A stretch of 64,000 nt of DNA from Candidatus Eiseniibacteriota bacterium (GTDB taxonomy: Bacteria > Eisenbacteria > RBG-16-71-46): assembly GCA_031366795.1 (NCBI GenBank), contig JANLOX010000245.1:1691-65690 (forward strand), written 5' to 3'. The position numbers and the translations under genes are program-made. The notes beneath the pieces are model-generated. The model saw only the letters and a list, made by a program, of their open reading frames with translations. It made no database searches and had not been told where the DNA came from. Positions within the stretch are counted from its first letter, which is position 1; each line of letters starts with the position of its first letter. Positions 8,629-58,529 of the stretch are shown here, one piece after another.

Positions 8629-9792
8629 TCAGGGCGCCACGGTGAATGGAGCCGAGGCGCGGGTCGTGTCCCAGTCGAAATGGAGGATTCCGCCCTGCGC
8701 CGACGTTTCCACGCTGAGCGTGAAGCGTTCGACCTCGGCCGGCAGCGTGCTGACCGTCATGTCGATGGTGGCGATGTCCTTGGTGGCGTCGTGCTCGGTG
8801 CCCCATTGGCCGGTTTGGCTGTTGACCAAGAGCTTCCAACCGGAGCGCGAAGGCAGCGTCCACAGGGTATAGAACCCGGCCGGGATCACCGTGCCGCCGA
8901 ACGACAGTGCCTTGTCGGTCTTGAACTGCGTCGCCGCGTTGGCCCCGGTCCGCCACACTTCACCGTAGGGCACCACATTGCCAAAGATCTCACGGCCACG
9001 CTTGCCGGGACGCCCGTAGTCGATCCACAGCGATGCCCCACCGGCGTTGGAGACGATGACCGAATCGCGCGGGGACAGCACGCCGAGACCGGCGCCGTTG
9101 TGTTCGCGTGCGGCGAACGAGGAGGCCAGCCCATCAAGATCCAGGCTCGCGACGCGCGCCACGGCGAACTTGCCAGTGCCCGAGATCGGAAGCGCTCGGA
9201 GCACGCGCCCTGTCCCGTCCACGTAAATGTGGAACACGTCGTTGTGCTCGTTCGTCAGGCCGATGGAGTCCCTGCCCAGCTTGCGCAGCGTGAAATGGGC
9301 CACGGCATCGGCGCCGAGGAAGTACTGGGTGCCCCGCAGCGAATCGGCCTTGCTGTTCACCAACCGCATGAGCTGCTGCTCGTAGACCGACCACGGGCTG
9401 GAGGACGGCTGCACCACCGCTCCCCTGGGGAACGCGATGCTCGAATTGCGCGGAGCCGTAGCACCGGTGCGTGTGGTGATCCGCAACGAATCGCCGTCCA
9501 CGCGCGCGGTCACCCGTTGCGTCGCCACCGTGTCGCCGGGTGGTGTGACCCGCATCAGGAAGGTCGCGAGGTTGGCGCCCGCGTACGTGTACTCGAAGTG
9601 CCGGCGCATCACCCGCGGCGCGCGTCCGACCTGGTCGACGACGACTCGTGCCCCCTCGCGCGTCACCCGTTCCACACTGGTCGTGTCGCGGCCCAGCGTG
9701 ACCACGAACGCATTCGTCTCCGGTGCGGCGGATACGGGCGCTGCAAGGGCGAGCATTGTCGCGAGGACCGTGGTTCGGATGGCAGCATGCAT
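8629..9792 (-). CDS. secreted DUF2911 domain protein
   Basis: Signal peptide MHAAIRTTVLATMLALAAPVSA. C-terminal PYGEVWRTGANAATQFKTDKALSFGGTVIPAGFYTLWTLP resembles DUF2911. Confidence 0.55.
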   Translation of the reverse strand: MHAAIRTTVLATMLALAAPVSAAPETNAFVVTLGRDTTSVERVTREGARVVVDQVGRAPRVMRRHFEYTYAGANLATFLMRVTPPGDTVATQRVTARVDGDSLRITTRTGATAPRNSSIAFPRGAVVQPSSSPWSVYEQQLMRLVNSKADSLRGTQYFLGADAVAHFTLRKLGRDSIGLTNEHNDVFHIYVDGTGRVLRALPISGTGKFAVARVASLDLDGLASSFAAREHNGAGLGVLSPRDSVIVSNAGGASLWIDYGRPGKRGREIFGNVVPYGEVWRTGANAATQFKTDKALSFGGTVIPAGFYTLWTLPSRSGWKLLVNSQTGQWGTEHDATKDIATIDMTVSTLPAEVERFTLSVETSAQGGILHFDWDTTRASAPFTVAP

Positions 9793-9871
9793 GCGGTGGC
9801 TCCGGGGATGGATGGGTTCAGCGAAGGGCTCGCGCCGCCGCGCGGTAGCCCCTTCAGGGCTTGGGCGCGTG

Positions 9872-10090
9872 CTAGTTGGCGTCCTCGTCCGCGTCGTCGT
9901 CGTCGCCGGAGTCCATGTCGGACGGCTCACCGGCGAGGTCGGTGATTCCCAACTCCTCGAGGCTGCCCATCTCGGGCCCGCCGCCGGTCCGCTTGCGTTC
10001 GAGCCGGGTTTGGCGCTTTTCGTTGGCTTTTGCGATACGAGCCTGTTCTTTTTGCCGCTTGAGGTAACTCGGGCGTCTGCTGGTTGCCAT
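9872..10090 (-). CDS. small hypothetical protein (basic N-terminus, poly-acidic C-terminus)
   Basis: 72 aa. GGAGGAGG Shine-Dalgarno 7-8 nt upstream of the ATG. Lies 80 nt upstream of the DUF2911 gene on the same strand. Confidence 0.4.
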   Translation of the reverse strand: MATSRRPSYLKRQKEQARIAKANEKRQTRLERKRTGGGPEMGSLEELGITDLAGEPSDMDSGDDDDADEDAN

Positions 10091-10214
10091 GTGGGCCTCC
10101 TCCCTGGGGTGCCGGCCAAATCCTGTTGTCGAGCGTTATTCATTACATGTCTGAGGCGGCACCGCAACCGGCGCCGCCTCAGTCGCCCGTCTCGATCGTG
10201 TAATCGCGACCGTT

Positions 10215-13200
10215 TTAGTGCATCAGGAGCAGCTTCTTCTGCTGCACCACCCCGCCGGTCTTGAGCCGGTAGAAGTAGACCCCGCTCGACAGTCCGCCCG
10301 CGCTGAGCTCGACCCGGTAGCGTCCCGGAGCCTGCGTGGTATTGACGAGCGACTTGAGCTCACGGCCCTGAATGTCGAACAGGCTGAGTTCGACCTTCTG
10401 CGTCGAGGGAATCGAGTAGACGATGCCCGTCTTGCCGTGGAACGGATTGGGGAAATTCTGGGCCAGCGCGACCGCGCGGCCGCCGCTGCCGATCTGCTCG
10501 ACCGCGACCCGCACGGAGTCGGTGCCGCCGAACTGGTAGTAGCGCGCCGCCATCTCCTGCAGGTACTGGTTGGCGATGTCGAAGTCGCGCACGATCACGG
10601 TGTTCTCGTTGTTCGAGTTCTCCGCCGAGCTGGACCAGTTGTGCGAGCCCGTCAGCACCGCGGCGTTGTAGAGCGGGTTCTCGGCATCGACCACGCAGTA
10701 CTTGTGGTGCAGCAATCCGGCGCCACCATTCTTGACGTGGACATCGACGCCGGCGGTGATGAGCGCCGGGTACTCCGTTCCCGAGTCCGAGTTGTTGTCG
10801 AGATCGCCGCGGACTGCCACTCCGGCGTTGTGGCGCGAGATCAGCGCGGCGGAAATGTCCGAGCGCGTCAGCGTCAGCAGCTCGAAGCCCACCGAGTGCT
10901 GCGCCCCGTTGATCAGCGAGATGATCTTGCCGGTCACGTAGTCCGAGGGACTGAAGTAGCACTCGACCGGCTTGCCGCCAATCACGAAGAAGTGCGGCGT
11001 GTTGTCCTGCTTGCGGGCGCCGAAGCGCGAGACGCCTGAGTTCGGGGTGTCGGTGCTGCTCCCCCACATCTCGTTGAATTCGAGCGTGTAGGTGTTGGCG
11101 AGCGCCTGGTCCTGGATCTCGATCGAGTTCTGGTAGTCGTCGTTCGTGCCCGGGTCCGTGGGGTTCCACGAACCGGTCCACACCCAGGTGCTCTCGGGCG
11201 CTCCGCCGCGCGAGTCGACCGAGACGAACTTGTTATGCATCAGCCCTAGCCCGCCGTTGAGCGGGTCGAAGCGGTCGTTGATCAGTGGCACGCCGCCGGA
11301 CGTCAGCGCCGTGAAGCCGGAGGCCGTGCTGTTGTCGTACTCGCAGATCACCCGGACCTTGACGCCGCGGTTCTTGGCTGCCACCAGTGCGGCCGCGATG
11401 GCGTTGCCGGGGGTGCCGCTCAGGTTGTAGAACGACGCGTCGATTGAACGCTTGGCGTTGTCGAGACGCGGCAACAGTTGGGCGAGCAGGTCGGCATTAC
11501 CGTTCGCTGCATGCCACGCGGCGGCATTCGTCGTCACGCTCTTGTTGAAGTACGCGTTGATCGCCCCGCTCGACTGCGGCGGCGAGGCCGTGCTGAACAC
11601 GGCGACCGGCGAGAAGTTCGCGCCGAGCCCGTCGGCGGAACCCGCGCTGTAGTAGTACACGGTCGCCGGGGTCAGCCCCGTGACCGGCAGCGCGTGCGCG
11701 GTGGTGTTGGTGTTGTCCACTGCGCTGTCGCCCAGGGCTGGCGTCAGGCCATAGCGGACGACGCTCGTGGAGGACACGTCGGTGGTCCAATTGATCCGCA
11801 CGGACGTCGGGGTGATGTTGTCCTCGCGCGGCGTCGTCAGGATGACGGGACCCGCGTGCGGAATAATGTCATCAGGCGTGCGCGGCGAGATTTCGTAGTC
11901 GGCGGTGTACGGCGGCCCCGGGGCCGGGGTGCCGGGCTTGAACTGCTTGAGGATGCCGATGATGTCGAACTGCGACGGCGTGGGCGGGAACGTGGCCGGG
12001 ATGAACACGTTCGTCGTGCCGGAAGCGTCGGTAAGGGTCGAGGCCGCCGAGTTGTAAGTGACGCCATTGATGCGAATCAGCCGACCCTCGTTCGGCTCGG
12101 TAAAGTCGGGCTTGAACGTGGCGTTGACGCCGGCGCAGGTCACCAGCATTGGATCGGGCAACGGGCGCCCGGCGGCGTGTCGCACCAACTGGCTGAAATC
12201 GATGGTGAGTTCGAGCAGGCCGCGGAACTGGGTGACCGAGCCGGTCGCCGTGATGCTGTCCCCGGGCGCGAGCGTGATCGGCGCCAGCGCGGCATTGAAC
12301 AAGTCCACGCCGCCCGAGGCGTCCTGCACATAGACGTCGGTGCGCGTGTCATTCAGGTTCGCGGTGACGATGCCGGTGACGCTGGCTTCCGCTCCGACTG
12401 CGTAGGGCGCGGCGCACACGCCCGAGGCGTTGTTGACGTGGAGCGACACGATCGGCACGAGATCGAGCACGCGGATGCTCGGCTGCTTGAGGATCGAAAC
12501 GAGCGTGCCGGCAGCGACGGCGGTGCGCGTGGTGAAGGTCGTGCCCCCCTTGGTGGCGGGCGTGGTCAGGTTTGCGATGGTCACGGTGCCGCTGTCGACG
12601 GCCGTGACTGCCGCGTTGTTCACGAAGATCGAGTCGCCGAGCAGGGAGACCGAGGCGCTGGCGAACGCCGTTCCCGCCAGGCTCACGTCACCGACGGTGT
12701 GCGACCAGGTCCACGATGATGGAACGAGGATGGCGACCTTGGTCAGCGTGTAAGCGGAGTCCTGCCCCACCGAGAGGGTGATCGCGCTGAGCGAACGGTT
12801 GGTGTACACGACCGTCGGCGAGATTCGTGCGAGGCCCGTGCCATTACCCCCCGCGGCGAGCGGCGGTTCGATTGGGCTCGAGGCGTTCTGCGGGTTGCGG
12901 CTGTGCGTCTGCAGCACGAAGTCGCTGCCATTGACGTCGGTGTCCTGGCCATTGCCCGCGAGGGCGTGCAGTCCGCCGGTAAACATCGAGTCCGCGGTCG
13001 AGGTCGCGAAGGCTTTGCGCTCGACGCTGTTGCTGGTGGTGCTGGTGCCGACCGACGGGGCGTCGCTACCCCCTTCGGGGCTGACGGCCGTGCCGTAGCC
13101 GACCTTGTCCACCTGCGCAGAGCTGGCGTCGAGAATGCGCAGATGGGCGTTGTCGGATAGACCGACGGTCCAGCTCGCCGCGTTGTAGTCAGGCGCCGCA

Positions 13201-13526
13201 GCACCGGTGTACACGGTTTGGTTCGCGATCAAGAAATAGCCGTGCGGCGCGATGACGGTGTTCGAGGGCAGCGTGGCGCGGTCGCTCCACGTGGTGCCAC
13301 TGCTGCCCGAGGAGTACTGCAGCTTCCAACCCGAGATATCCACCTGCACATTCGTCGGGTTGTACCACTCGCAGAATTCATCGAACGCGCCCGCCGGTCC
13401 GCGCGAGGCGAATTCCGAGATCACGACGTGATTGGCGGCCGCGTGCGCCGTGGGCACCGCCGTCGCGGCGAGCCCAAGGCCAATCAGGGCCATGGAGAGA
13501 ATGAGCAATCGGGGCAAACAACGCAT
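10215..13526 (-). CDS. secreted phospholipase D/HKD-family enzyme with N-terminal lamin-tail domain, FN3-like domain and T9SS-type C-terminal sorting domain
   Basis: Signal peptide; LTD-like block (NHVVISEF...GWKLQY...GYFLIAN). Two HxKxxxxD motifs (MHNKFVSVD...TGSWNPT and LHHKYCVVD...TGSHNWS). Tail NFPNPFHGKTGIVYSI...GVYFYRLKTGG. GGAG Shine-Dalgarno. Confidence 0.8.
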   Translation of the reverse strand: MRCLPRLLILSMALIGLGLAATAVPTAHAAANHVVISEFASRGPAGAFDEFCEWYNPTNVQVDISGWKLQYSSGSSGTTWSDRATLPSNTVIAPHGYFLIANQTVYTGAAAPDYNAASWTVGLSDNAHLRILDASSAQVDKVGYGTAVSPEGGSDAPSVGTSTTSNSVERKAFATSTADSMFTGGLHALAGNGQDTDVNGSDFVLQTHSRNPQNASSPIEPPLAAGGNGTGLARISPTVVYTNRSLSAITLSVGQDSAYTLTKVAILVPSSWTWSHTVGDVSLAGTAFASASVSLLGDSIFVNNAAVTAVDSGTVTIANLTTPATKGGTTFTTRTAVAAGTLVSILKQPSIRVLDLVPIVSLHVNNASGVCAAPYAVGAEASVTGIVTANLNDTRTDVYVQDASGGVDLFNAALAPITLAPGDSITATGSVTQFRGLLELTIDFSQLVRHAAGRPLPDPMLVTCAGVNATFKPDFTEPNEGRLIRINGVTYNSAASTLTDASGTTNVFIPATFPPTPSQFDIIGILKQFKPGTPAPGPPYTADYEISPRTPDDIIPHAGPVILTTPREDNITPTSVRINWTTDVSSTSVVRYGLTPALGDSAVDNTNTTAHALPVTGLTPATVYYYSAGSADGLGANFSPVAVFSTASPPQSSGAINAYFNKSVTTNAAAWHAANGNADLLAQLLPRLDNAKRSIDASFYNLSGTPGNAIAAALVAAKNRGVKVRVICEYDNSTASGFTALTSGGVPLINDRFDPLNGGLGLMHNKFVSVDSRGGAPESTWVWTGSWNPTDPGTNDDYQNSIEIQDQALANTYTLEFNEMWGSSTDTPNSGVSRFGARKQDNTPHFFVIGGKPVECYFSPSDYVTGKIISLINGAQHSVGFELLTLTRSDISAALISRHNAGVAVRGDLDNNSDSGTEYPALITAGVDVHVKNGGAGLLHHKYCVVDAENPLYNAAVLTGSHNWSSSAENSNNENTVIVRDFDIANQYLQEMAARYYQFGGTDSVRVAVEQIGSGGRAVALAQNFPNPFHGKTGIVYSIPSTQKVELSLFDIQGRELKSLVNTTQAPGRYRVELSAGGLSSGVYFYRLKTGGVVQQKKLLLMH

Positions 13527-13663: not shown

Positions 13664-15496
13664 CTATTTACCCAGCAGATGGAGCACGCCGACCGACATC
13701 TGCGGGAAGTACGTGATCAGCAGCACGCCTATCCCTAAGATGATCACGAACGGCACCACATGTTTGTACAGTTCAGGCAGCGGCCGATTGAAGCGGGATG
13801 AGGCTAGGAATAGGTTGAGCCCGGCCGGCGGGAACAGGAATCCCAGCTCGAGATTCGCGAGGAAGATGACGCCCAGGTGAACGGGATCGATGCCGAAGGC
13901 GGCGCCGATCGGAGCGACCAGCGGCGCCAAAATGATGATCGCCGAGTAGATCTCGAGCACGCTGCCCAGCACGAGCAGCACGACGTTCAGCACCAACAGG
14001 AAGATGTAGGGCGAATGGATGTGCGTCTTCACGGCCGTCAGCAGCGCGTCCGGGATCTGCGCGTCGACGAGCCAGCTGGTGAGCCCGAGCGCGCAGGCGA
14101 GCAGCAGCAGTACCGCCCCACACAGCACGCTCGCCTTGATCAGCACGTTCGGCAGGTCGCGCACCGGGTGGATGTCGCGCGTGATGAAGCACTCGACGAT
14201 GATGGCGTAGCCGAACGCAACCGCCGCGGCTTCCACCATGGTGGCGAGCCCGGTGATAAACAGCGCCACGACGAGGATAGGCACCGACAGTTCCCACTTG
14301 GCGGCCCACCCCGCGGCCAGCGCCTCGCGGAGCGAGAACGCCTGGCGGCGTGACTTCACCTTGCGCCCGATGTGAATGCCGTACAGCGCCACGAGCACGA
14401 CGAGCAACAACCCCGGCACGAGCCCCGCGAGGTAGAGCGAATCCGCCGGCACCTTGGCCACGATGGAATAAAGAATGACCGGAAGGCTGGGCGGGAACAG
14501 TAGCCCGAGGCTACCGGCGGCGGTCACCAGTCCGAGCGAGAAGCCATCGGGATAGCCGTCATCCGCGAGGATCGAATACAGCAGCGCTCCCAGCGCCATG
14601 ATCGTGACGCCCGAGCCACCCGTGAAGGTGGTGAACAGCGCGCACACCGCGGCCACCAGCACGGCGACGCCGCCGGGCATCCAACCGAACAGCGAGCGGA
14701 AGAACCGCACCAGGCGGCGTGATGCCTGCGACTCGGCCATGACGTAGCCGCACGCCGTGAGCAGCGGCACGGCCGGCAGCGTCGGCGACACCATCAGGCG
14801 GTAGATGTCCGCTGTGACCGCCGAGACCGGAACGCCATCGCGGAAGAACAGCACGAGCGCCACGCCGCCCATCGCGACGAACACGGGTGCGCCGACGAGC
14901 GCGGCCAAGAGGATCACGGCGAGCAGAGGCCAGGCGAGCGAGTGCCCGAGTGCGGGCACCAGCCCGAGGGCGAAGGCCACGCCGATGGCGCCGAAGGAGA
15001 TGGCGCGGCCCCTCCAGTGGTCTGCCGCCCCCCACGCCAGCCGCACGGCGATCAGGGCAAGCGCCAGCGGCATGACGCTCTCGCTGACCCACGCGGGGAG
15101 TCCGATGGTGAGGACGTCGCCTTGCGTGCGATCCGCAGCGACCACGCCATACGCCGAATAGGCCAGCACGGCGCAGACCGCTGCGGCGACCGATGACGAG
15201 AACAACCGCGCCGCGTTGCGCACGCTGACCTTGCCGATGGCTTCGGCGGTCGACAGCGTCAGGTGCTTGCCCTCGCCCGCCGCCAGCAGGCCGCCGAGGA
15301 ATGAAAGCCACAGCGTCAACTGGGCACGGTAGGCCGCGGAGCCGGGGACGCTGAAGCCGCCGAGTGGGCGGCCGAAGGCGTCGATCAGCGGCAGCACCAT
15401 GGAGACGAGAAACGCGAACACCAGCACCCCTCCCTCGACACTACGAAGGGCGGTGCCGATGCGTCCGCGTTGGGGCTGTATGGTGTCGTCGTGCAT
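13664..15496 (-). CDS. TRAP transporter fused (DctQ-DctM type) permease
   Basis: ~16 TM helices. DctM hallmark GIDPVHLGVIF...LGFLFPPAGLNLF. ATG 15496 chosen. Confidence 0.65.
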   Translation of the reverse strand: MHDDTIQPQRGRIGTALRSVEGGVLVFAFLVSMVLPLIDAFGRPLGGFSVPGSAAYRAQLTLWLSFLGGLLAAGEGKHLTLSTAEAIGKVSVRNAARLFSSSVAAAVCAVLAYSAYGVVAADRTQGDVLTIGLPAWVSESVMPLALALIAVRLAWGAADHWRGRAISFGAIGVAFALGLVPALGHSLAWPLLAVILLAALVGAPVFVAMGGVALVLFFRDGVPVSAVTADIYRLMVSPTLPAVPLLTACGYVMAESQASRRLVRFFRSLFGWMPGGVAVLVAAVCALFTTFTGGSGVTIMALGALLYSILADDGYPDGFSLGLVTAAGSLGLLFPPSLPVILYSIVAKVPADSLYLAGLVPGLLLVVLVALYGIHIGRKVKSRRQAFSLREALAAGWAAKWELSVPILVVALFITGLATMVEAAAVAFGYAIIVECFITRDIHPVRDLPNVLIKASVLCGAVLLLLACALGLTSWLVDAQIPDALLTAVKTHIHSPYIFLLVLNVVLLVLGSVLEIYSAIIILAPLVAPIGAAFGIDPVHLGVIFLANLELGFLFPPAGLNLFLASSRFNRPLPELYKHVVPFVIILGIGVLLITYFPQMSVGVLHLLGK

Positions 15497-15638
15497 GAGC
15501 GGCGGCAGGTTAGCATTAAGTTCGCGGCGATGCAGGCGTTGCGGCCGGTACGCGAAGGTCACACGCTTAGCGCGTGACGCCCTCGGGTAGGATGTTGACG
15601 TCGCGCCGCGTGAGTGAACCTTCAGCAGCGGAGGTCCT

Positions 15639-16237
15639 GTGTCGATCCGCCCCGTCAGACGAATGATCGAAGCCCAGCCCACCGTCGAAGGGGCTGGCGT
15701 GAAGCTGCGCCGCGCGTTTGGTTTTGGCGAAACGGATGACACCGATCCGTTCCTGCTGTTCGACGACTTTCGCAACGATGATCCGAACGACTATCGCGCC
15801 GGGTTCCCGTGGCATCCGCACCGCGGCATCCTCCACCAGGAAATGTCGCAGGGCGACGCGCAGGGTCACATGCACGGCTTCCCGCTGTGGGCGAACCTTC
15901 CCTCCTCCTTGAAGCCGACCATGCCGCGCAACCAGGATGTGGGCGCGCGCGCGACATCCCCGACATCCCCGACGACCCACGCGGCGTGCCCGTCGAGCAG
16001 CTCGGTCCTGTCGAAATCGTGAAGCGCGAACAGGCGATCGACCGCTCCCTGGTGCTGTTCGATGCCGGCGACGAGGTCGTCGTCCAGGCGGGCGAACAGG
16101 GCATCCGCTTCCTGCTGGTGTCGGGGCGCCCCATCGAGGAGCCGGTGGCGTGGTATGGCCCGATCGTGATGAATACGCAGAGCGAATTGCGCCAGGCGAT
16201 TTCAGAATTGCGCTCCGGGACGTTCATCAAGGAATGA
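15639..16237 (+). pseudogene. pirin-family cupin remnant (internal in-frame deletion, frameshift at a (GC)5 run, 9-bp tandem duplication)
   Basis: Frame 0: RPV..VEGAGV.LRRAFG...DPFLLFDDF...GFPWHPHRGI, then a jump to GFPLWANLP (about 35 residues missing). Frame 2: PIEEPVAWYGPIVMNTQSELRQAISELRSGTF is the pirin C-terminus. Confidence 0.5.
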
Positions 16238-16867: not shown

Positions 16868-18187
16868 TTAACTTCCCGAGACGGTCAACCCCTCGAAGCG
16901 CACCGCCGCGGGGCCGAGGTAATCGCCACGGAATACTACTTCTTTGGAGTAGTGCGCCGTGCCCAGCGCGCTGAACACATTGCCGCTCACGGTGCCGCCC
17001 TTGATCGGGGTGATAACGCCCCTGTTGTAGAGCGTGCCCACGCGGATCTCGCTGGCGAACGCGCCGCGCGCATTATCCGGGGTCAGCCACGAAAACGATT
17101 GCACGTACAGCACCGGGCCATCGTGCGACAGTAGCTCGGCGAGCGGTGTCTTACCGGCGGGAAGTTCCCAGTTGGCGAAGCCGCCCGTGGGCTCGACCTT
17201 GAGATAGTCGGCGTACTGCTTCGTCGTCACTGGGCGGTTGAACACGCCGTCCTTGATGACCTCGATGCGCTGCCCGGGGACACCGTTGCCGTCGAACGCG
17301 TAGCTGGCCAGCCCAAATGGCATCAGGGCATTGGACACGACATTGAAGGGTTCGCCCCCTGTGGTGTCGATCGGCAGCGGCTTGCCCTGCTCAAACCGCG
17401 AGGACTTCTGGTAGAGCGATTCCGCCAAAGCATTGTTCTGCACCGGCGAGAGCAAGCCGGTCAACTCCGACGCATCGATCACCACCGCGAACTTGCCGGA
17501 CGGCGGCGCCTGGGCGCGCGTCAGCGCATGAGCCTCATCGGCGGCGCGTCCCACCAGGTTGGCGACGTCGAGATCCGCGATGCGCCGGCGTTCATCCCAT
17601 GAGTAGCGTTCCGATGCTTTGGTGCCATCGGCCAGCAGCAGCGTCAGCAGGGACACCCGCGTGGAACGCGAGTGCGCGAGCAGCCCCGCGGAATTCTCGA
17701 GTGTCTGTTCAGCCTCGCCGCAGAATAATTCCATCGATGAGGGCCGCACTTCGCCGCCGTGCTGCTTGACTGCGTTGCGCCAGGCATCTGCGAGCTGCGC
17801 CGACGTTTCCGCCACGGCATTACTCCCGAGCGCCGGATCGTAGGTGTCCAGCAGCGGAAAGGTGGCGGCACCCGGGAGGCTCCAGGGGTTGACGCCGCCG
17901 AGTCCGGCCATGAAGACGGCGTCGTCGACGCGGCGGTCGAGCTGCAGCACATCGTCCTCGCGGAAGGTCAGGCTCGAGCTGCCGAGCTTGTCACGGTGCT
18001 GGACGAACACGGTCGCGACCACCGTCTCGCCGCTCACCTGCCGCTGCGATTCCAGCTGGGTCTTGACGAGGTAGGTCTGCAGGCCTGCCTGCGAGGTGCG
18101 CGCGAGCTGCCATGCGGCGATGCCCTTGTGCTTCGCGAGTGCAACGCGCGCCGCATCGGCCAACCGGGAACGTGAGGAGATGGTCAT
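16868..18187 (-). CDS. TldD/PmbA-family metalloprotease partner (PmbA/TldE-like)
   Basis: PmbA_TldD-family conservation across the length. Start ATG overlaps the tldD stop (ATGA). Confidence 0.7.
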   Translation of the reverse strand: MTISSRSRLADAARVALAKHKGIAAWQLARTSQAGLQTYLVKTQLESQRQVSGETVVATVFVQHRDKLGSSSLTFREDDVLQLDRRVDDAVFMAGLGGVNPWSLPGAATFPLLDTYDPALGSNAVAETSAQLADAWRNAVKQHGGEVRPSSMELFCGEAEQTLENSAGLLAHSRSTRVSLLTLLLADGTKASERYSWDERRRIADLDVANLVGRAADEAHALTRAQAPPSGKFAVVIDASELTGLLSPVQNNALAESLYQKSSRFEQGKPLPIDTTGGEPFNVVSNALMPFGLASYAFDGNGVPGQRIEVIKDGVFNRPVTTKQYADYLKVEPTGGFANWELPAGKTPLAELLSHDGPVLYVQSFSWLTPDNARGAFASEIRVGTLYNRGVITPIKGGTVSGNVFSALGTAHYSKEVVFRGDYLGPAAVRFEGLTVSGS

Positions 18188-19725
18188 GACACCTTCGCCT
18201 TGGTGCGCAGGTGGGGTCCGCCGCTGGTGACCGCGACGAATTCCTTGAAGCCCTTGCCGCACGAGCCGGGTTCGAGCGCGAAGTCATTGCCGACCATGGT
18301 GATGTTGCCGAGGATCTCGGGAACGTAGCCGGTGATCGTCGGTGGTGCGAAGATGCGGCCGGTGAACTTGCCGTTCTTGACCTCGCGCGCCGTGCCCGCG
18401 GTGAACTGGATGCCCCACCCCTGCGGGTCCTCGATGCCGTTGCGAAAGCCCTCGAGATAGAGACCGTCCTTCAGGCTGTCGAGCATTTCCTGCGGATCGC
18501 TGGTGCCGCGCGCGAAGAATGTGTTCGACATGCGCGCATAGACCTTGCGGTCCCAGCTCTGGGTGCGGCCATTCGGGGTGCGCGAGGTGCGAAGGAACGT
18601 CGCGGACATCAGGTCCGTCAGTGGTTGCACGAAGATGCCATCCTTGATGATGGTCGTGGGCTGGGCCGTGGCGCCTTCATCGTCAAACGCGTACGAACCG
18701 CGCGCGCCCGCGAACGAGGGGTCGTCGAGCAGCGTCACCAGTTTGGAGGCCACCGGCTTGTTGAGGAACTCGCGCGACTTGGCGCGGTCCTTCACGAACT
18801 GGTCCATCTCGACGCCGTGGCCGAAGCTCTCGTGCGCCAGCAATCCCGAGACCTCGGGAGCGAACACCACTTCGTACTCGCCTGCCGGCACGGGCTCGGC
18901 GGTGAGCGACTCGACGAAGTCCTTGCGCAGCTTCTCGATGTCCGTGTCGTTCAAGTGAGCGAGTTCGAGTCCCGCCTGTCCGACGTGGCGGCGAAAGCCG
19001 AAGCCGGGCTTGCCTTTGTCGAAGCCAAACATGAACCCGGTGTGCGCCACCATGGTGCTGACGCTAGCCAGCCGGCGCGTGCGGTCCACGAATACCCGTT
19101 GCGTCTCGGTGACGTCGGTCGAGACGCGCACACCGCGGACGCGGGGATCATCCCAGTTGCAGCGGTCGAATTCCTGGTCGAGCAGGGCCGCGCGGTCCTT
19201 CAGCGGGAGCGCTGCAGGGTCGCGTTCCATCGCGGTATGCCACGTCTGCTGCAATTGCGGGAGCCGCTCGATCCGGTAGCGGTCGGCGGCACGCGGAACC
19301 GAGCGCTTGAGCGCCGCGGCGGCGGCGTGCAAGGCCTGCGGCGAGGTGCTGCCCACGGCGGTCTCGTGAAACGCCCCACCATCGAAGATGCGAATCGAGG
19401 CACCCAACGTAGGTGTACCGGCCTCGCTGACGCGCTTGCCCTTGCGGTCGCGGCTGATCGAAACGCCGCCCGTCGCGATGAACAGCGCCGAGGCGTATGG
19501 GAACTTCGTCTCGAGGTCAGCGACGATGGCGGACAACTCGTCGAGCAGGCCCCCGGGGAATCCAGGGCCCGTTGCGGGGTGGTGCGGAATAGCAGTCGTG
19601 CGATGTGGCATCGAACCCGCGCGGGTGGCGGCGCGCAGCGAGTCGGCGAATGACGACGCGACCACGGCGCCTGCCAACGAGGCGCCGCCTCGGATCAGGA
19701 ACTGCCTGCGGTTCATGGCGGCCAT
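18184..19725 (-). CDS. tldD: TldD-family zinc metalloprotease with twin-arginine (Tat) signal peptide
   Basis: MNRRQFLIRGGASLAGAVVA Tat motif; HESFGHGVE metal-binding motif. Confidence 0.75.
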   Translation of the reverse strand: MAAMNRRQFLIRGGASLAGAVVASSFADSLRAATRAGSMPHRTTAIPHHPATGPGFPGGLLDELSAIVADLETKFPYASALFIATGGVSISRDRKGKRVSEAGTPTLGASIRIFDGGAFHETAVGSTSPQALHAAAAALKRSVPRAADRYRIERLPQLQQTWHTAMERDPAALPLKDRAALLDQEFDRCNWDDPRVRGVRVSTDVTETQRVFVDRTRRLASVSTMVAHTGFMFGFDKGKPGFGFRRHVGQAGLELAHLNDTDIEKLRKDFVESLTAEPVPAGEYEVVFAPEVSGLLAHESFGHGVEMDQFVKDRAKSREFLNKPVASKLVTLLDDPSFAGARGSYAFDDEGATAQPTTIIKDGIFVQPLTDLMSATFLRTSRTPNGRTQSWDRKVYARMSNTFFARGTSDPQEMLDSLKDGLYLEGFRNGIEDPQGWGIQFTAGTAREVKNGKFTGRIFAPPTITGYVPEILGNITMVGNDFALEPGSCGKGFKEFVAVTSGGPHLRTKAKVS

Positions 19726-19895
19726 GAGAGGCACACTAGGACCATCCGCGCTAGGAATCCACGCGAATGTGTGCGCGATGCGCGCCCTCGTGACGAACGC
19801 CGAATTCACGGGGACGACCGCGAGTGTGCGCGGGGGTTTGGGGCACCAAGCGCCGCGACGCGCCGGCCTGCGGTTCGAGTGGTGCGCGCAACCCC

Positions 19896-21110
19896 CTATC
19901 GCGTCGCGGCCGCTCCCGCGGCGCGAATGCCGCACAGGTCGAGGATGCGTTCGTAGCATGCGTCGCCATCAAATTCCGTCCGCACGCGGTGGATTGCATT
20001 CGCGCGCAGCGTGGCAATCCGGGCCCCATCGGTCGACAAGCACTCATGCATCGCCAGCGCCAGCGCGGCGGGATCCTCGGGGGGCACGAGCCAGCCTATC
20101 TCCCCGGAATCCACGGCCTCCCCCATCCCGCCGATCCGCGTGACGATGGGAACGCAGCCGGCCGCCATGCCCTCGAGGAGCGCAAGTGGCAGACCTTCGA
20201 ACCGGCTTGAGAACAGAATCACGTCGAACGCCGACAGCGCATCGAGCGGACGTGCGACGGGGCCCACGAACAGGGCGCGGCGTCCTAACCCAAGTTCACT
20301 CGCCAGCGCAGCGAGGGAGTCGTGATCGGGCCCCTCGCCCGCGATCACCAAAGTGAATGCGCGTGAACCCCCGAGGTCCGCCGTCCGGCGCGCGGCCTCA
20401 AGAGCCAGATCGATACCCTTGACTCCGGTGAGCCGGGTCATCATCCCGAAGACGAATGTCTTGGAGTCGACGCCGTGGGCCGCGCGAAATTGCGACCCGG
20501 CGTCGTCGTCGCGCTGGAAATCATGCCAGCGCACGCCATTGCGCACCACGACGATGTCGTCTGGGGACGCATCCCAATCGCGCACGAGACGGTCGCGTAC
20601 CTTCGAGCTGACGGCGATCACCAGATCGGCGCAACGCGCGGCGTCCTGCTGGCGGTGCTTGCGGCGGCGCCACGCCAGGCCGAGGCTCGGGAGGAAGCCG
20701 AACAATGGCCGCTCGCGCGCAGCGGGCTTAGGGGGAGCCTCGAGATGTTCGATGAACACGACGCTCTTGAACTTCTTGCGGAACGCACGCAGCAGCGGCA
20801 ACTGCCCGTGATAGAAGTGTCCCTTGGGGAAGATCAAGAGTTCGCTGCGCAGCGATTCGAGCACGCGTTTCCACTCGCCCATGTCCACCGGCTGCTCGGG
20901 AGTGATCCCCGGCAGTTCCGTCGGAATCACGCGCACGCTTGGCCCCAGTCCACGTGCCGCCACCCACTCCGTATAGGGATCGAATCGGTTGGCGACGACC
21001 TCAATCGTGGCGCCGCGGCGCACCAGCGCTTCGATCAGGCCGAACGTATGCACCACCGAGCCACCGAACGCCTCCGCTTCCGTGATGATCGCGACATTGC
21101 GGCGTGGCAT
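19896..21110 (-). CDS. glycosyltransferase family 4 (GT-B, retaining)
   Basis: EX7E region FEGLPLALLEGMAAG. Start 3 nt downstream of the GT2 stop. Confidence 0.8.
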   Translation of the reverse strand: MPRRNVAIITEAEAFGGSVVHTFGLIEALVRRGATIEVVANRFDPYTEWVAARGLGPSVRVIPTELPGITPEQPVDMGEWKRVLESLRSELLIFPKGHFYHGQLPLLRAFRKKFKSVVFIEHLEAPPKPAARERPLFGFLPSLGLAWRRRKHRQQDAARCADLVIAVSSKVRDRLVRDWDASPDDIVVVRNGVRWHDFQRDDDAGSQFRAAHGVDSKTFVFGMMTRLTGVKGIDLALEAARRTADLGGSRAFTLVIAGEGPDHDSLAALASELGLGRRALFVGPVARPLDALSAFDVILFSSRFEGLPLALLEGMAAGCVPIVTRIGGMGEAVDSGEIGWLVPPEDPAALALAMHECLSTDGARIATLRANAIHRVRTEFDGDACYERILDLCGIRAAGAAATR

Positions 21111-21113
21111 GTC

Positions 21114-22205
21114 TCAGCGCGCTCCTGGAGCCGCGAAAGCGCGGGCTTCCGCGCGCGGCCACATCGCGAAGGGGGCAGCCACCAAGCCGAGCAGGACGCC
21201 GCGTGACTGTGCGCGACGGCGGAGAGCAGCTTCGCAGTCTTCGCCCGCGTGCTGCCTCCAACGCGCGGGCTGCGACAACACCAGTCGCACGAGCCGGCGC
21301 AACGCCACGCCATCGCCGCACAACACGTGCTTCACGAGATGACCTGAGAGTCCCTTGCCGTAGCTGAATTCCATGTGGCACACCTGCTCGATCTGTGTCC
21401 GGTCGTGATCGTGATGCACCAGGATGTTCGGGGCATAGCGCTGCGTGTACCCAGCCCTTAGCGCGCGATAGAACAGGTCTACTTCCTCGGCCCCGGCGAA
21501 CCAGGCGCCGGCCCCGAGGCGTGTGTCGAATCCGCCCACGCGTCCGAACACTTCGCGCCGGAACGCCATGTTGGCGCCGATCACGAAACTGCCGCTCGCG
21601 GGAAAGGCGAACTCCTGACGCTCCATCGAGGGCTGGTAGGACACCTTCTGCAATCCTCCGTGCGCGAGCAGGACGCGTCCCCCGAGCATGCCGAGCTGGG
21701 GGCTGCTAGCGAACTCTGCCGCGATCTGGTCGAGCCAGCCGGGATCTGGGCGCACATCGTCATCGGTGAACACGATGATTTCACCCCGCGCCGCAGCGAG
21801 CGCGGCATTGCGCGCGTGCGACAGGCCGGATTGGGCCTCGTGCACGTAGCGCACTTGCGGGTGTGCCACGGCACAGGTCTCGATCACCTCGCGCGTCGCG
21901 TCGTTCGAGCCGTTGTCGACGACGATCAGCTCGTGGGCGTAGTCGCCGGAGAAGCGCTGCTCGAAGTACTGCCGGAGGGTGATGGCGAGCGATGCCGCGC
22001 GGTTGCGCGTGCAGAGAGCCACGCTGATCAGCACGAGTTCCCTCCCGTGGGCGCCATCCTGACTTCGAGCCGGCCTGCAATCCGCAGCATGTGCAAGCTC
22101 CAAGCCCGCAGGGTCTGCTGGGTCGATTGGCGCAGCCGCTAGGGTGAAACGCAGCGGCGGGTCGCCAATATCCCGCCGTGAGGCGGGTGGAGCATGCATG
22201 CACAT
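21114..22205 (-). CDS. glycosyltransferase family 2
   Basis: ISVALCTRNRA...VVDNGSNDAT...FTDDDV GT-A motifs. Start uncertain (ATG 22205/22199, or further upstream to 22376). Confidence 0.65.
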   Translation of the reverse strand: MCMHAPPASRRDIGDPPLRFTLAAAPIDPADPAGLELAHAADCRPARSQDGAHGRELVLISVALCTRNRAASLAITLRQYFEQRFSGDYAHELIVVDNGSNDATREVIETCAVAHPQVRYVHEAQSGLSHARNAALAAARGEIIVFTDDDVRPDPGWLDQIAAEFASSPQLGMLGGRVLLAHGGLQKVSYQPSMERQEFAFPASGSFVIGANMAFRREVFGRVGGFDTRLGAGAWFAGAEEVDLFYRALRAGYTQRYAPNILVHHDHDRTQIEQVCHMEFSYGKGLSGHLVKHVLCGDGVALRRLVRLVLSQPARWRQHAGEDCEAALRRRAQSRGVLLGLVAAPFAMWPRAEARAFAAPGAR

Positions 22206-22469
22206 GGTGAGCGTGACGCGCCATCCTAATGCGATGGCGTTGCTTGGGCCAAGCCCCGCGTTCCGGTGGCGCATGGCACCGACTATGCAGTGTAGGGGTA
22301 CGAGACCTCGAAGGGTGCCATGCGTCCGCAGGGTCGACAGGCGTCCTGCCCTCGCGGCAAGGCGCACCTGTTGCATCCTGCGAACGGCAACTCCTCCTTG
22401 CCCCGGTTCGCAGGTCGGATCGTCCGATGCCTGATCAACCTGCCCGCAGTTCCAGAGGGGAATGCTTTC

Positions 22470-25400
22470 GTGCAGCGACGCTTGAGTAACGGGTGCCTTG
22501 CGGTTGTGGTGAGTCTCATGGTGCCTGCCTTAGCCGCGGCGGCCACCGTGCCGCCCCAGTTCGTCGATGAGAACATCGCTCCAGGATCGACGTTCACCGA
22601 CCCCACCGCGATCGCCTACCTGCCCGGGGGCCGGCTGCTCGTCGCGGAGAAGCGCGGCCGCGTCTACTCGATCACGCAGGGCGTCAAGAGCGCGAACCCC
22701 CTGTGGTCGCGCGAGAACGAAGTGATGAATGACGGCGACCGCGGCCTGCTGGGTCTCGCGGTCGATCCCAACTACGCCACCAACCACTACATCTACCTGC
22801 TGTACTCGGTCGACCCTGATTCGGACGGCGTCGACACCGCCCCCACGGACGACTTCGGCCGGCTCACGCGTTATCGCATCAGCTTCACCGACTCCACGAC
22901 CGTCGATGCCGCCTCACGCACAATCCTGATGGGCGTCAGCTGGCGCTATGGCCCCGTTCACTGCTTCAACTCGCATGCGGTGGGATCGCTGCGCTTTGGC
23001 GCAGACGGCAGCCTGCTGGTCTCGGCAGGCGATGGCGCCTCGTGGGCCACGACCGACGCGGGTGGGCTCGATGCGGGTGATTTCGGCGCGAGCGTCAACC
23101 AGACGGATCCCTACCAGGACATCGGTTCGTTCCGGGCGCAGTCGCTGAGCAGCCTCAACGGCAAGGTGCTGCGCATCAATCCCGCCAACGGCGCGGGTTA
23201 CCGCAGCAATCCCTACTTCGACGGCAATCCCTACTCGGTCCGCTCGCGCATCTGGGCGTATGGAATGCGCAACCCGTTCCGCTTCTGCGTCCGCCCTTCC
23301 ACCGGCGTTGCCGACACCTCGGCCGGAAATCCGGGCACGCTGTTCATCGGCGATGTGGGATGGGAGACATGGGAAGAAGTCAATGTGGTCACCGCACCCG
23401 GACCGAATTTCGGCTGGCCCTGCTATGAAGGCAACGGCACCCAGCCCGCGTACCAGGCCGCCAATCCTGCCCACAACGGTTGTGGCAGCAACGGCACCGC
23501 CGACAACCCGGCGATGCAGTCCTCCCCGCTGATGACGTGGCATCACTTGGATGCCGCGCTGGGTTCGCCGGCCGGCTTCGCGGGCAACTGCGTGATCGGT
23601 GGCATGTTTTACACCGCCACGAAATATCCCGCGGTCTATCGCGGCGGTTACTTCTTCGCGGATTTCGGCACCAACTGGATTCGCTGTGCCACGCTCAACG
23701 CCAGCAACCAGGTCGTCTCGGTGAGCGACTTCGCCACCGGCCTCACCGGCCCGGTCGACTTCGCGCCCGATCCCGTGACCGGTGATCTTGTCTACGTTGC
23801 CATCATGACCGGCGAAGTGCGGCGCATCCGCTTCACCGGCATCAATGGCAACGCGCCGCCGGTGGCCATGGGCGTAGCCAGTGTGAGCTACGGCACCTCG
23901 CCTCTGACCGTGAGCTTCTCGAGTGCGGGCACCTATGATCCGGAGGCGCAGCCGGTCACGGTGTCGTGGGCGTTCGGCGATGGTCCCTCGAGCAACATCC
24001 CAAACCCGAGTCACACCTACTTGTCGCCGGGGACTTACGCGGCGGTGCTCACCGCCGACGATGGGCAGGGGGGTGTCGGCCGCGACACCCTCATGATCGT
24101 GGTTGCCGGCTCGACCGCATTCCCTGCCTCCCCAGTGCTCGACTTGTTCAATCGCGCCGATGCCGCCTTGGCAACGCCCTGGACCGGCAACCTTACGGGA
24201 CTCACCGTAACGGCCAATGCCCTCGTCTCGAGCGGCGAATACTCCTCCGCCCTGTGGGGAACCGCCGCCTACGGCGTGAACCAGGAAGCCTACGTGACAC
24301 TCTCCACCGCATCGCCGCTGGCCACCGAGCAGGATCTGTTGCTCAAGGTGCAGGGTGCCGGGCCGGACGACGCCGCGATCGAAGTCTGGTACTCCGCTTC
24401 GTCCACCAGCGTCAACGTACTCACCTTCGCGCTCCAGCAGGGTTGGGTGCAACGCGGCGTGCTGTCTCCCATCAACTTCGGCCCGGGCGACCGTTTCGGC
24501 GCGCGCGCGTTGGCGAATGGCGATCTGCAAGTGTTCAGCGGGCGCGACCTGCTCGGCACGGTGAGCCTCGGCGATTGGCCATTCGCGCGGCGCGGCGGAC
24601 GCATTGGGTGTTCGTTCACCGATGCCGGTGGTTCACGCTTCGACGATTTTGGCGGTGGCGACTCCAACCTCGGCGTCAGCGCCGCGCCCGTCGTACACGT
24701 GCTCATGCCCAATGGCGGCGAAGCATGGACGGGCGGCACGGCCCACGCCATCACATGGAATGCGACGGACGACTTTGGCGTTACCTCGGTCGATGTCGCC
24801 TATCGGGAAGCCGCGAGCCCCGCGTGGCTTCCGCTGTCACTCGGCCAGGCCAACAACGGCAGCTACACGTGGTTCGTCCAGAACACCCCGAGTTCGACCG
24901 TGAAGGTCCGGGTCACCGCGCGCGACGCTTCGGGCAACGCGGGGGTTGATTCGAGCGATGCCGTCATGTCGATTCTCGCGACCCCCGGTGGTCACGTCCC
25001 GACGACCCTGCGCGATTTCCACCAGCCGGGCACGCAACCGCTCGAGGCGGGAACCTTCAGCAGCCACGACGCGTGCTACAGCTGCCATGGCGGCTACAAC
25101 GCCGCGGTGGAACCCGGGCAGGGATTCCGCGGCACCATGATGGCCCAGGCGGCACGCGACCCGCTGTTCTACGCCTGCCTCGCGGTCGCCGAACAGGACG
25201 CGCCGTCGTCGGGCGACCTGTGCATCCGTTGTCACGCTCCGCTCGATTGGCTCGGCGGCCGCAGCCAGCCGACCAGTGGCGCCAACATCTCGACGCTGGG
25301 ACGCGACGGCGTCACCTGCGACTTCTGCCACCGCATGGTGGATCCCATTTACAAGCCCGGCGTCAGCCCGGCGGAGGACCAGACCGTGCTCGCCGGCATG

Positions 25401-57509: not shown

Positions 57510-57578
57510 TCCTGGACTCCTTGTGTGGATGTGCTCGCGGCCTTGACCCTCGAACGTGGTGCTGAATAGCCTGCCCAC

Positions 57579-58331
57579 ATGTCCTGGATCCTCGAAACGT
57601 CCCAACATGTAATGATGTGGCGCCCCACCTTCACCCCCGCGGGTTGCGTCGTCGCCATGACGACACGCCGCGGGGGCGTCAGCCTGGCACCCTATGACGA
57701 TCTGAATCTCGGGCGATCCACCGCCGATGCACCCGGCTCGGTGACCGAGAACCGGCGGCGCGTTTTGGCCGCCCTTGGGGTAGACCCCGAGCGGCTCGCG
57801 ACCGCGGGGCAGATCCATGGCACGCGCGTAAGCGAAGCCACGGCGGCTGGGCTCCACACCGAAACCGACGCGCTGTTGACCCGGGAAACGGGACTCGCGA
57901 TTGCCGTCAGTGGTGCCGATTGTCTCCCCCTTGCCCTGTGCAGCGGCAGCGTCGTCGCTGTCGCCCACTCCGGATGGCGCGGCACGGTGGAAGGAATGCC
58001 CGGCGCCGTCCTGCGCGCGGCACTCGAATCCTCCGCTGCGTCCGCCGCGGATGCCTATGTCTACCTCGGGCCCTGCATCGGGCCTTGCTGCTATGTCGTG
58101 GGTGAAGACGTTGCCCGGTACTTCCCGGAAGCGGCAATCGTTCGCCGCGGGGCCGACGTGTACGCCGATATCGCTCTCGCTGCGCGCCTGCAACTTGAAG
58201 CCGCCGGCGTTCCCGCCGGCCAGATTCTCGACCCACCCGCCTGTACGTCCTGTGCCGCTGACTTCTGTTTCTCGCACCGGCGCGATCACGGACTCACCGG
58301 ACGGCTCTGGGGAATCGCCGCCCGCTGCTAG
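57579..58331 (+). CDS. pgeF: peptidoglycan editing factor PgeF (YfiH/DUF152 laccase-domain protein)
   Basis: Colinear with E. coli YfiH (GGVSLAPYDDLNLG, ADCLPLAL, HSGWRG, FSHRRD). Confidence 0.85.
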   Translation: MSWILETSQHVMMWRPTFTPAGCVVAMTTRRGGVSLAPYDDLNLGRSTADAPGSVTENRRRVLAALGVDPERLATAGQIHGTRVSEATAAGLHTETDALLTRETGLAIAVSGADCLPLALCSGSVVAVAHSGWRGTVEGMPGAVLRAALESSAASAADAYVYLGPCIGPCCYVVGEDVARYFPEAAIVRRGADVYADIALAARLQLEAAGVPAGQILDPPACTSCAADFCFSHRRDHGLTGRLWGIAARC

Positions 58332-58529
58332 CACCGTGCCTGCCGTTGCGGGCGGAAAGTATAGCAAGCGAGCCATATCCGCCGCACGCCGCATCCCGGC
58401 CCGAAGTGATTGACGCTGGCTTGTCATGTGTGCTCGGTCCGGAATCTTGACCGTGGTGAAAGCTCACTCCTAGACTACATTGCAGGAATACGCTCCGCTC
58501 CCCGCTTTCAAATTTCGACAGGAGGATTC

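Follow-up and report, generated by a model that had tools for sequence, protein, structure and literature searches.

Nuc of Salmonella (1BYR), NucT of Helicobacter pylori (6EHI) and Zucchini/PLD6 (4GGJ, 4GEL) are phospholipase D (PLD) superfamily proteins of about 155-220 amino acids (aa), with a single HKD motif, that form homodimers. The chemistry of Nuc is metal-independent and proceeds via a phospho-histidine. NucT is a nuclease of the cell envelope that has been implicated in purine salvage and transformation in H. pylori (PMC5714352). Extracellular nucleases of the ExeM, Xds and SpnA type combine a lamin-tail domain (LTD) and/or OB domains with a catalytic domain; ExeM consists of an LTD, an OB region and a catalytic domain, the OB region being essential and the LTD partly dispensable (PMC6085458). 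Proteins with a DUF5689 domain (PF18942) have also been studied in relation to DNA. The Bacteroides thetaiotaomicron locus ddbABCDEF is required for depletion of exogenous DNA, and in a model of the system its DUF5689 protein DdbD lies outside the cell and binds substrate as partner of the TonB-dependent transporter DdbC; DdbD is predicted to bind DNA and resembles the double-stranded DNA (dsDNA)-binding HIN domain of p202, PDB 4JBM (bioRxiv 10.1101/2025.03.18.642099). Riemerella anatipestifer loses natural transformation when its DUF5689 protein RA0C_RS04920 is removed by markerless deletion (PMC8459023). Here, we describe a gene on the minus strand (positions 10215..13526) of a 64,000-nucleotide stretch of contig JANLOX010000245.1 from an uncultured Candidatus Eiseniibacteriota bacterium of soil or freshwater (assembly GCA_031366795.1); the whole stretch is referred to below as the window. 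The 1,103-aa product falls outside the NucT equivalog, outside the ExeM family and outside DUF5689 as Pfam defines it, but combines elements of each. It is probably a metal-independent PLD-superfamily nuclease, exported through a secretion system of type IX (T9SS), that acts on extracellular DNA and/or RNA and carries a DdbD-like module.

Tandem PLD lobes and a DUF5689-like module

The catalytic core consists of two lobes, residues 655-848 (10983..11564; this and all other features of the gene lie on the minus strand) and residues 849-1010 (10497..10982). Pfam assigned both to PLDc_2 (E 1.4e-37; 128.9 bits, where the cutoff is 27), which matched twice along the chain, the best stretch being residues 868-993 in lobe 2. 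The initial annotation had noted two HxKx4D...GSxN motifs near the C-terminus, and these can be read directly as H764-N-K766-FVSV-D771 ... G785-S786-W-N788 (11163..11237) and H940-H-K942-YCVV-D947 ... G960-S961-H-N963 (10638..10709). In alignment, their D-to-GSxN spacings of 13 (motif 1) and 12 (motif 2) residues compare with 6 in Nuc/Zucchini. Both HKD/GSxN motifs were invariant in 72 of 72 full-length homologues, and they varied little or not at all across a more diverse set of 53 representatives of the catalytic module, which argues for a live enzyme.

Lobes 1 and 2 are 30% identical to one another (E 2e-13); hence, we interpret the core as an internal duplication of a Nuc-like unit that takes the place of the usual homodimer. 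Nuc, NucT and Zucchini are the nearest relatives by sequence and have in common with this protein the HxKx4D...GSxN pattern with GS at the glycine-serine position, whereas here two diverged copies stand in one chain, inside a multidomain T9SS cargo of 1,100 aa. Searched against PDB sequences, the family profile matched mouse Zucchini/PLD6 (9e-19), Nuc (9e-18) and NucT (5e-8), all over lobe 2, and, over lobe 1, Drosophila Zucchini (E 2e-13). Serratia PLD (3.5e-3) and PLD3 (0.017) followed, with lipid-active PLDs at 3.5e-3 or weaker. NucT was also the best catalytic match among NCBIfam models. Both glycine-serine motifs read GS (G785-S786 and G960-S961), as in four nucleases, whereas the first is GG in Streptomyces and human PLDs (PMC8004604). 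With a pI of 5.1-5.3 the lobes have a net acidic character, yet contain conserved basic residues (R720, R725, R773, R834, K839, R906, K932 and R995), with R834 and K839 bounding a conserved basic loop in lobe 1 (R834-F-G-A-R-K839).

A full-length AlphaFold2 (AF2) model, built from the alignment of the 72 homologues, had a mean pLDDT of 88.3 and a pTM of 0.55, the latter as expected for a beads-on-a-string protein. In this model, the two HKD lobes pack as one bilobed PLD unit. The initial annotation had proposed that the two motifs form a single active site and had suggested structure prediction as a check, and the modelled unit indeed resembles bilobed PLD enzymes at the level of the fold. Foldseek comparison with the PDB aligned the catalytic module as one unit with two-HKD monomers (about 390 columns, TM 0.60-0.69). 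The best whole-module match was Serratia SpPLD (7e0m; E 8e-17, TM 0.65), and further matches included the single-stranded DNA (ssDNA) exonucleases PLD3/PLD4 (E ~1e-15, TM 0.60) and vaccinia F13 (TM 0.69); a single lobe aligned with mouse Zucchini at TM 0.76. The mammalian endolysosomal 5'-3' exonucleases PLD3/PLD4 and SpPLD are likewise bilobed two-HKD enzymes of a single chain, but are only 17-19% identical to this core and differ from the protein in accessory domains, localisation and lineage.

Residues 353-562 (11841..12470) form a putative nucleic-acid-binding module of the OB-fold, DUF5689-like (DdbD-like) type. Modelled alone (residues 352-562), the region reached a pLDDT of 91.8 and a pTM of 0.88 and comprises a canonical OB barrel (residues ~375-455) followed by a second small beta-barrel (~460-556). 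No part of residues 215-565 matched a Pfam family, even at E <= 10, and a single-sequence PDB search with these residues gave noise only; the 353-562 segment itself accordingly falls below the Pfam threshold for DUF5689, with no match at E <= 10. More distant family members match DUF5689 at the same position (E 7e-8 to 5e-6), with P0119 passing the gathering score (33.0 against 28.6) and P0118 and P0113 just under it. Moreover, the segment finds bona fide DUF5689 domains by tblastn (E 5e-11), a hidden Markov model (HMM) made from three bona fide DUF5689 domains finds the 10215-13526 protein (E 7e-12), and profile-profile comparison of the segment with DUF5689 (hhalign) gave 99.5% probability (E 3.8e-23, 170 columns). 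Judged by sequence, residues 353-562 are thus a diverged DUF5689 domain.

The predicted fold points the same way. HIN domains (p202, p204, AIM2-type) align over both barrels in Foldseek (200-215 columns, at a modest TM of ~0.4), PDB 4JBM (p202 HIN) is among the fold-search matches of the module, and its top structural neighbours are all of the nucleic-acid-binding class. DdbD and RA0C_RS04920 carry the DUF5689 domain to which this segment is homologous, and the segment shows the HIN/p202-like double-OB resemblance that was reported for DdbD; DdbD, however, is a stand-alone protein, whereas in the present case an enzyme is attached to the domain and no DdbC-like transporter gene is adjacent. 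Residues 375-462 also weakly match residues 17-117 of the SpnA chain in a profile search (E 0.017), and the N-terminus of SpnA has been described as OB domains (PMC13601614). Conserved aromatics, Y399, F410 and F434 among them, and a small number of conserved arginines are candidates for contact with DNA.

Gene call, export signals and accessory domains

The gene was taken from a six-frame list of ATG-to-stop open reading frames (ORFs) and comprises 1,103 codons plus a stop codon (10215-10217). An identical public protein was found by homology search (P0001). Third-position GC is 0.89, as in other real genes of this window of 66% GC, in which GC ranges from 65% to 69%, and GGAG lies 8 nt 5' of the ATG. 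Homologues align from residue 1, so the start call appears sound. The initial annotation had called the same 1,103-aa gene and described its product as a secreted enzyme, with the reservation that the signal peptide might be lost if the start were re-called; the ORF, codon-position GC, GGAG and homologue alignment agree on the gene, and the signal peptide is retained. A scan for promoters and terminators around the gene found no signal exceeding shuffled expectation.

The predicted Sec-type signal peptide (residues 1-29; 13440..13526) was read from the sequence as MRCLPR, LLILSMALIGLGLAATAV and PTAHA/A, where the slash marks the AHA/A cleavage motif, and has recognisable n-, h- and c-regions. 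By a sequence and hydrophobicity heuristic, a positive n-region and a hydrophobic h-region are present in 69 of the 72 homologues, the remaining three having truncated N-termini; AF2 modelled residues 5-22 as a low-confidence helix. At the other end, residues 1020-1103 (10218..10469) form a beta-sandwich that is a T9SS type-A C-terminal sorting domain (CTD), matched by TIGR04183 of NCBIfam (residues 1025-1100, 44.4 bits against a cutoff of 23) and by Por_Secre_tail, PF18962, of Pfam (residues 1025-1099, 34.1 bits against 27). Type-A CTDs are secretion signals that are cleaved after translocation, the cargo then being released or attached to the surface in some other way. The idea in the initial annotation that the protein is surface-anchored through its CTD tail is therefore imprecise, although the CTD itself is present.

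An HMM of the CTD from this PLD family found two more window proteins with the domain at the extreme C-terminus. The first (34025-36709, minus strand; 894 aa) matched at residues 807-892 (E 1.2e-16), has a DUF4350/ABC_transp_aux-like region at its N-terminus in addition to an InlB B-repeat (Flg_new_2) and Ig domains of the Big_7/Kre9 type, and is likely a second T9SS cargo of the window. A third cargo is likely represented by the 1,524-aa product of 22320-26894 (plus strand), which combines a beta-propeller of the glucose/sorbosone-dehydrogenase kind with PKD and Big_7 domains and ends in a FlgD_ig/CTD-like tail (E 1.3e-8); this gene is syntenic in the closest relative (89% identity, see below). 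Genes for T9SS machinery (PorV, SprA/Sov, PorU, GldKLMN) were not seen within the 64 kb window; the two additional CTD proteins and the membership of Candidatus Eisenbacteria in the FCB superphylum lend indirect support to a T9SS in the genome.

The regions ahead of the core are accessory domains. The LTD spans residues 30-215 (12882..13439). Its Pfam core (PF00932, residues 29-145) scored 55.8 bits (E 7e-15), with the cutoff at 34.3, and a conserved beta extension comes after it. Residues 225-352 (12471..12854) are an Ig-like all-beta domain that matches no family and was modelled as strands only (pLDDT ~90). Between the OB module and lobe 1 lies an FN3-like domain of the purple-acid-phosphatase N-terminal type (residues 565-652; 11571..11834), recognised as PF16656, Pur_ac_phosph_N (residues 572-646; E 1.2e-9, 39.1 bits against a cutoff of 30), with fn3 at E 2e-3. 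These assignments bear out what had been deduced before the database searches, namely an N-terminal lamin-tail-like domain followed by FN3-like and beta-rich regions, the beta-rich one being the DUF5689-like OB module; in the Pfam scan that had been suggested, LTD and PLDc_2 both scored above cutoff. The expectation that LTDs accompany secreted nucleases has a documented example in ExeM (PMC6085458). In overall layout the protein is like ExeM, Xds and SpnA, from the signal peptide and N-terminal LTD through the OB region to the C-terminal nuclease and sorting signal. However, those enzymes have a Mg/Ca-dependent endonuclease/exonuclease/phosphatase (EEP) catalytic domain, whereas the core here is of the PLD type and predicted to be metal-independent, and they are sorted by GlyGly-CTERM/rhombosortase or LPXTG rather than by a T9SS CTD. 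Pfam found no EEP domain in the protein, and NF033680 matched the LTD region only (24.7 against a cutoff of 1300).

Substrate and possible role

We propose that the Sec signal peptide brings the protein to the periplasm and that the type-A CTD routes it through the T9SS and is then removed, which would place the enzyme at the cell surface or in the medium. The DUF5689-like double OB module (residues 353-562) would capture nucleic acid, and the FN3-like domain would join this module to the two Nuc-like lobes, which may form one pseudo-dimeric active site. There, His764 or His940 would attack the phosphodiester to give a phospho-histidine intermediate while the other histidine protonates the leaving group, with Lys766, Lys942, Asn788 and Asn963 predicted to hold the phosphate and no metal required. 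The LTD and Ig-like domain could be optional accessories, acting as spacers or in surface or substrate association. The purpose of such an enzyme is likely the scavenging of phosphorus, nitrogen and carbon or the remodelling of extracellular DNA (eDNA) in the matrix. The initial annotation had allowed for a nuclease or a phospholipase. We favour a nuclease because the protein has a DUF5689-like OB module, is closest in sequence to Zucchini, Nuc and NucT, and carries GS in both glycine-serine motifs.

Several observations weigh against a nuclease. Literature searches found no assay of any member of this family or of an enzyme with this architecture in which Nuc-like lobes are fused in tandem, and no publications on LTD plus PLD nucleases, on secreted PLD-type nucleases of Bacteroidetes or on T9SS in Eisenbacteria. 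The score against the NucT equivalog is far from its cutoff (40.6 bits against 297), and the best two-lobe structural match, 7e0m, was deposited as a phospholipase D. In both DUF5689 studies, DNA binding rests on genetics and structural similarity. The gene neighbourhood is also uninformative about a nucleic-acid pathway: in a sample comprising Pfam annotation of 30 window ORFs, the genes around three distant homologues and 123 flanking ORFs from 80 genomes, there was no conserved gene partner (the commonest flanking family, NHL repeats, accounted for 11 of the 123), and genes for a nucleotidase, a phosphatase, a nucleoside transporter or a DdbC-like TonB transporter were absent from the vicinity. 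Gene context is kept in close relatives only, other relatives occurring in unrelated contexts. Lastly, the OB module is acidic (pI 4.5, net charge -9), as are all mature domains except the CTD, which is unexpected for a proposed DNA-binding domain. However, bona fide DUF5689 domains of other loci are as acidic (pI 4.3-4.4), so domain charge does not discriminate for nucleic-acid binding. The acidity hence characterises the domain family as such and does not count against this particular protein.

The same observations can be read in favour of other substrates. One reading is a secreted true phospholipase D or lipid phosphodiesterase, which would hydrolyse or transphosphatidylate phospholipid head groups of other cells, membrane debris or vesicles as secreted Streptomyces PLDs do. 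The protein has the two-HKD single-chain architecture of classical PLDs, the best Foldseek match is deposited as a phospholipase D, Streptomyces PLD and PssA are among the further matches, the automatic JGI names of relatives point in this direction, and it is not evident how an acidic surface would suit nucleic acid. Yet the profile is 15 orders of magnitude nearer to Zucchini, Nuc and NucT than to 7e0m, the alignment with Streptomyces PLD reached a TM of only 0.42-0.47, and the motifs are GS/GS instead of the GG/GS of true PLDs. The Pfam PLDc motif (PF00614) is matched by 15 of the 53 relatives, but not by the 10215-13526 protein. Moreover, SpPLD has nuclease-like features and an unsettled, unproven substrate, and its authors themselves ask whether it is a nuclease (PMC8004604). 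A fused OB/DUF5689 module would have no role in lipid hydrolysis, and we consider a phospholipase unlikely. Unlikely, too, is a phosphodiesterase whose substrate is some other polymer outside the cell, for example a teichoic-acid-like polyol phosphate, a glycan with phosphodiester links or polyphosphate, and whose OB module binds a ligand other than nucleic acid. OB folds are able to bind oligosaccharides and proteins, the PLD superfamily includes polyphosphate kinase, whose lobes also match the model, the OB module and lobes are acidic, and the FN3 domain ahead of the core is of the purple-acid-phosphatase type. Against such a substrate stand the nucleic-acid-binding class of all top structural neighbours of the OB module, the two independent ties of DUF5689 to DNA and the nucleases that are the nearest sequence relatives of the lobes.

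A more specific version of the nuclease assignment is a surface enzyme devoted to DNA uptake and not to bulk scavenging, in which DUF5689 would capture dsDNA and the core would nick or degrade it for a Bacteroidota-type uptake or transformation system. A DUF5689 protein is essential for transformation of Riemerella, where the step from dsDNA to ssDNA has no assigned enzyme (PMC8459023), DdbD has been proposed to pass DNA to a TonB-dependent transporter (bioRxiv 10.1101/2025.03.18.642099), and the PLD-family relative NucT affects transformation in H. pylori (PMC5714352). Certain loci of Bacteroidota and Kryptoniota also have, as the next gene, one for a non-catalytic surface protein with DUF5689 and a CTD. 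However, no DdbC-like transporter, ComEC or competence gene adjoins the gene or was found in the window or among the 123 flanking ORFs. As a sub-case of the extracellular nuclease, from which it is indistinguishable in silico, this role appears to be of low probability. Least probable by far is a catalytically dead adhesin or scaffold built on the PLD fold, like FAM83 or vaccinia F13. Both F13 and FAM83B are among the structural and sequence matches, and the protein has many Ig/FN3-type modules, but the catalytic residues of both HKD motifs are kept across the 72 homologues and 53 representatives, unlike in pseudo-enzymes, and this reading was rejected. An anti-phage defence function was rejected as well: the DrmC model of NCBIfam matched at 27.9 bits only, against a cutoff of 133, and export of the protein and the lack of defence-type genes around it speak against such a function.

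A secreted nuclease as such would be unsurprising, but the family is large and coherent and links DUF5689 to an enzyme. At its broadest, the family could be an unrecognised class of type-IX-secreted, metal-independent surface DNases, in which a DdbD-type module hands environmental DNA to a tandem-Nuc core. Such enzymes would provide a major route of eDNA turnover in uncultured soil and sediment phyla of the FCB superphylum (Eisenbacteria, Ignavibacteria, Kryptoniota, Chitinophagales), and perhaps the missing outer-surface DNA-processing step of Bacteroidota-type uptake and transformation. We regard this full scenario as speculative and unlikely. Soils and sediments contain much phosphorus and nitrogen in the form of eDNA, and the enzymes with which uncultured phyla degrade it are mostly unknown; if the family is a nuclease family, as it appears to be, a widespread class (at least 584 species genomes and 713 sequence clusters) would be added to them. 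A metal-free PLD-type nuclease should resist EDTA and could therefore act where humic-type chelators inhibit Mg/Ca-dependent nucleases, and a robust metal-independent nuclease would be a useful reagent. DUF5689 would gain a second, enzyme-fused context, which would strengthen its proposed role in DNA capture in the Bacteroidota lineage.

Family distribution and gene neighbourhood

The family is large and phylogenetically coherent. In a protein search, over 120 homologues matched at full length with 44-89% identity, and they share the precomputed Pfam architecture, so this architecture is not a chance match. They derive from Candidatus Eisenbacteria, Ignavibacteriae, Bacteroidota and Kryptonia and, where named, are called lamin tail domain-containing, phospholipase D-like domain-containing or T9SS type A sorting domain-containing proteins. 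The closest relative is encoded in a Candidatus Eisenbacteria metagenome-assembled genome (89% identity), followed by other Eisenbacteria (63-65%), while relatives in Ignavibacteria, Kryptoniota and Chitinophagales were 36-58% identical. A homologue of 37% identity occurs in a genome labelled Melioribacter roseus, a cultivable carrier. A scan using one genome per species found relatives in at least 584 species genomes, almost wholly within the FCB superphylum, and an exhaustive HMMER search with the catalytic module alone returned 713 cluster representatives at E <= 1e-30.

Domain composition varies around a constant core. When seven segments of the protein were mapped onto 85 loci of relatives (L001-L085), the order OB-FN3-PLD1-PLD2-CTD was constant, whereas the LTD and Ig-like domain were variable, the latter being absent in many relatives. 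Among the 53 diverse representatives of the catalytic module, Por_Secre_tail was found in 40, CHU_C (another T9SS signal) in 3, FlgD_ig in 7, DUF5689 in 16 (best E 1.5e-24) and LTD in 7. From these counts, the catalytic module is overwhelmingly T9SS cargo and has repeatedly been fused to DUF5689. The position at which the tandem-HKD module starts follows protein length (P0124-P0272), being near residue 20 in proteins of ~450 aa, near 115 at ~550 aa, near 310 at ~750-800 aa and near 650 at ~1100 aa. These length classes suggest that modules of the FN3, DUF5689, Ig and LTD kinds were added stepwise at the N-terminus.

Several relatives from Bacteroidota and Kryptoniota have, directly downstream of the PLD gene, a gene whose product has a T9SS CTD and no recognisable catalytic domain (L004:13693-17064, L017:9956-13129, L020:10269-12863, L021:11165-13582 and L077:10987-13656). 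A DUF5689-type region of this downstream gene matched the OB segment 353-562 by tblastn in all five loci. Pfam recognised DUF5689 over the full profile (2-217) in L020 and L021, with L077 below cutoff, and ASH/HYDIN-type Ig repeats are present in L017, L020, L021 and L077. This downstream protein may be a DNA-binding surface partner. The window contains no such DUF5689 plus CTD gene.

In the window, the gene immediately upstream (13664-15775, minus strand) encodes a TRAP permease in which DctQ and DctM are fused, beside which no DctP-type binding protein was seen, and the gene downstream (8629-10167, minus strand) encodes a DUF2911 protein; both are syntenic with the PLD gene in the 89% relative only. 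The DUF2911 ORF is 512 aa long, compared with a 388-aa gene called in that relative, and its true start is probably internal. Further genes in the same order as in the 89% relative are a tandem pair of PmbA/TldD-type metallopeptidase genes (16868-19959, minus strand), followed by GT4 and GT2 glycosyltransferases (19896-22376, minus strand). An ORF of 1,278 aa (54591-58427, minus strand) has SurA_N and PpiC rotamase domains confined to its C-terminal two-thirds, and has either a long N-terminal extension or an over-called start. The rest of the window consists of ordinary chromosomal genes, including mutL, miaA, der, plsY, a sigma-70 factor, glycosyltransferases and transporters.

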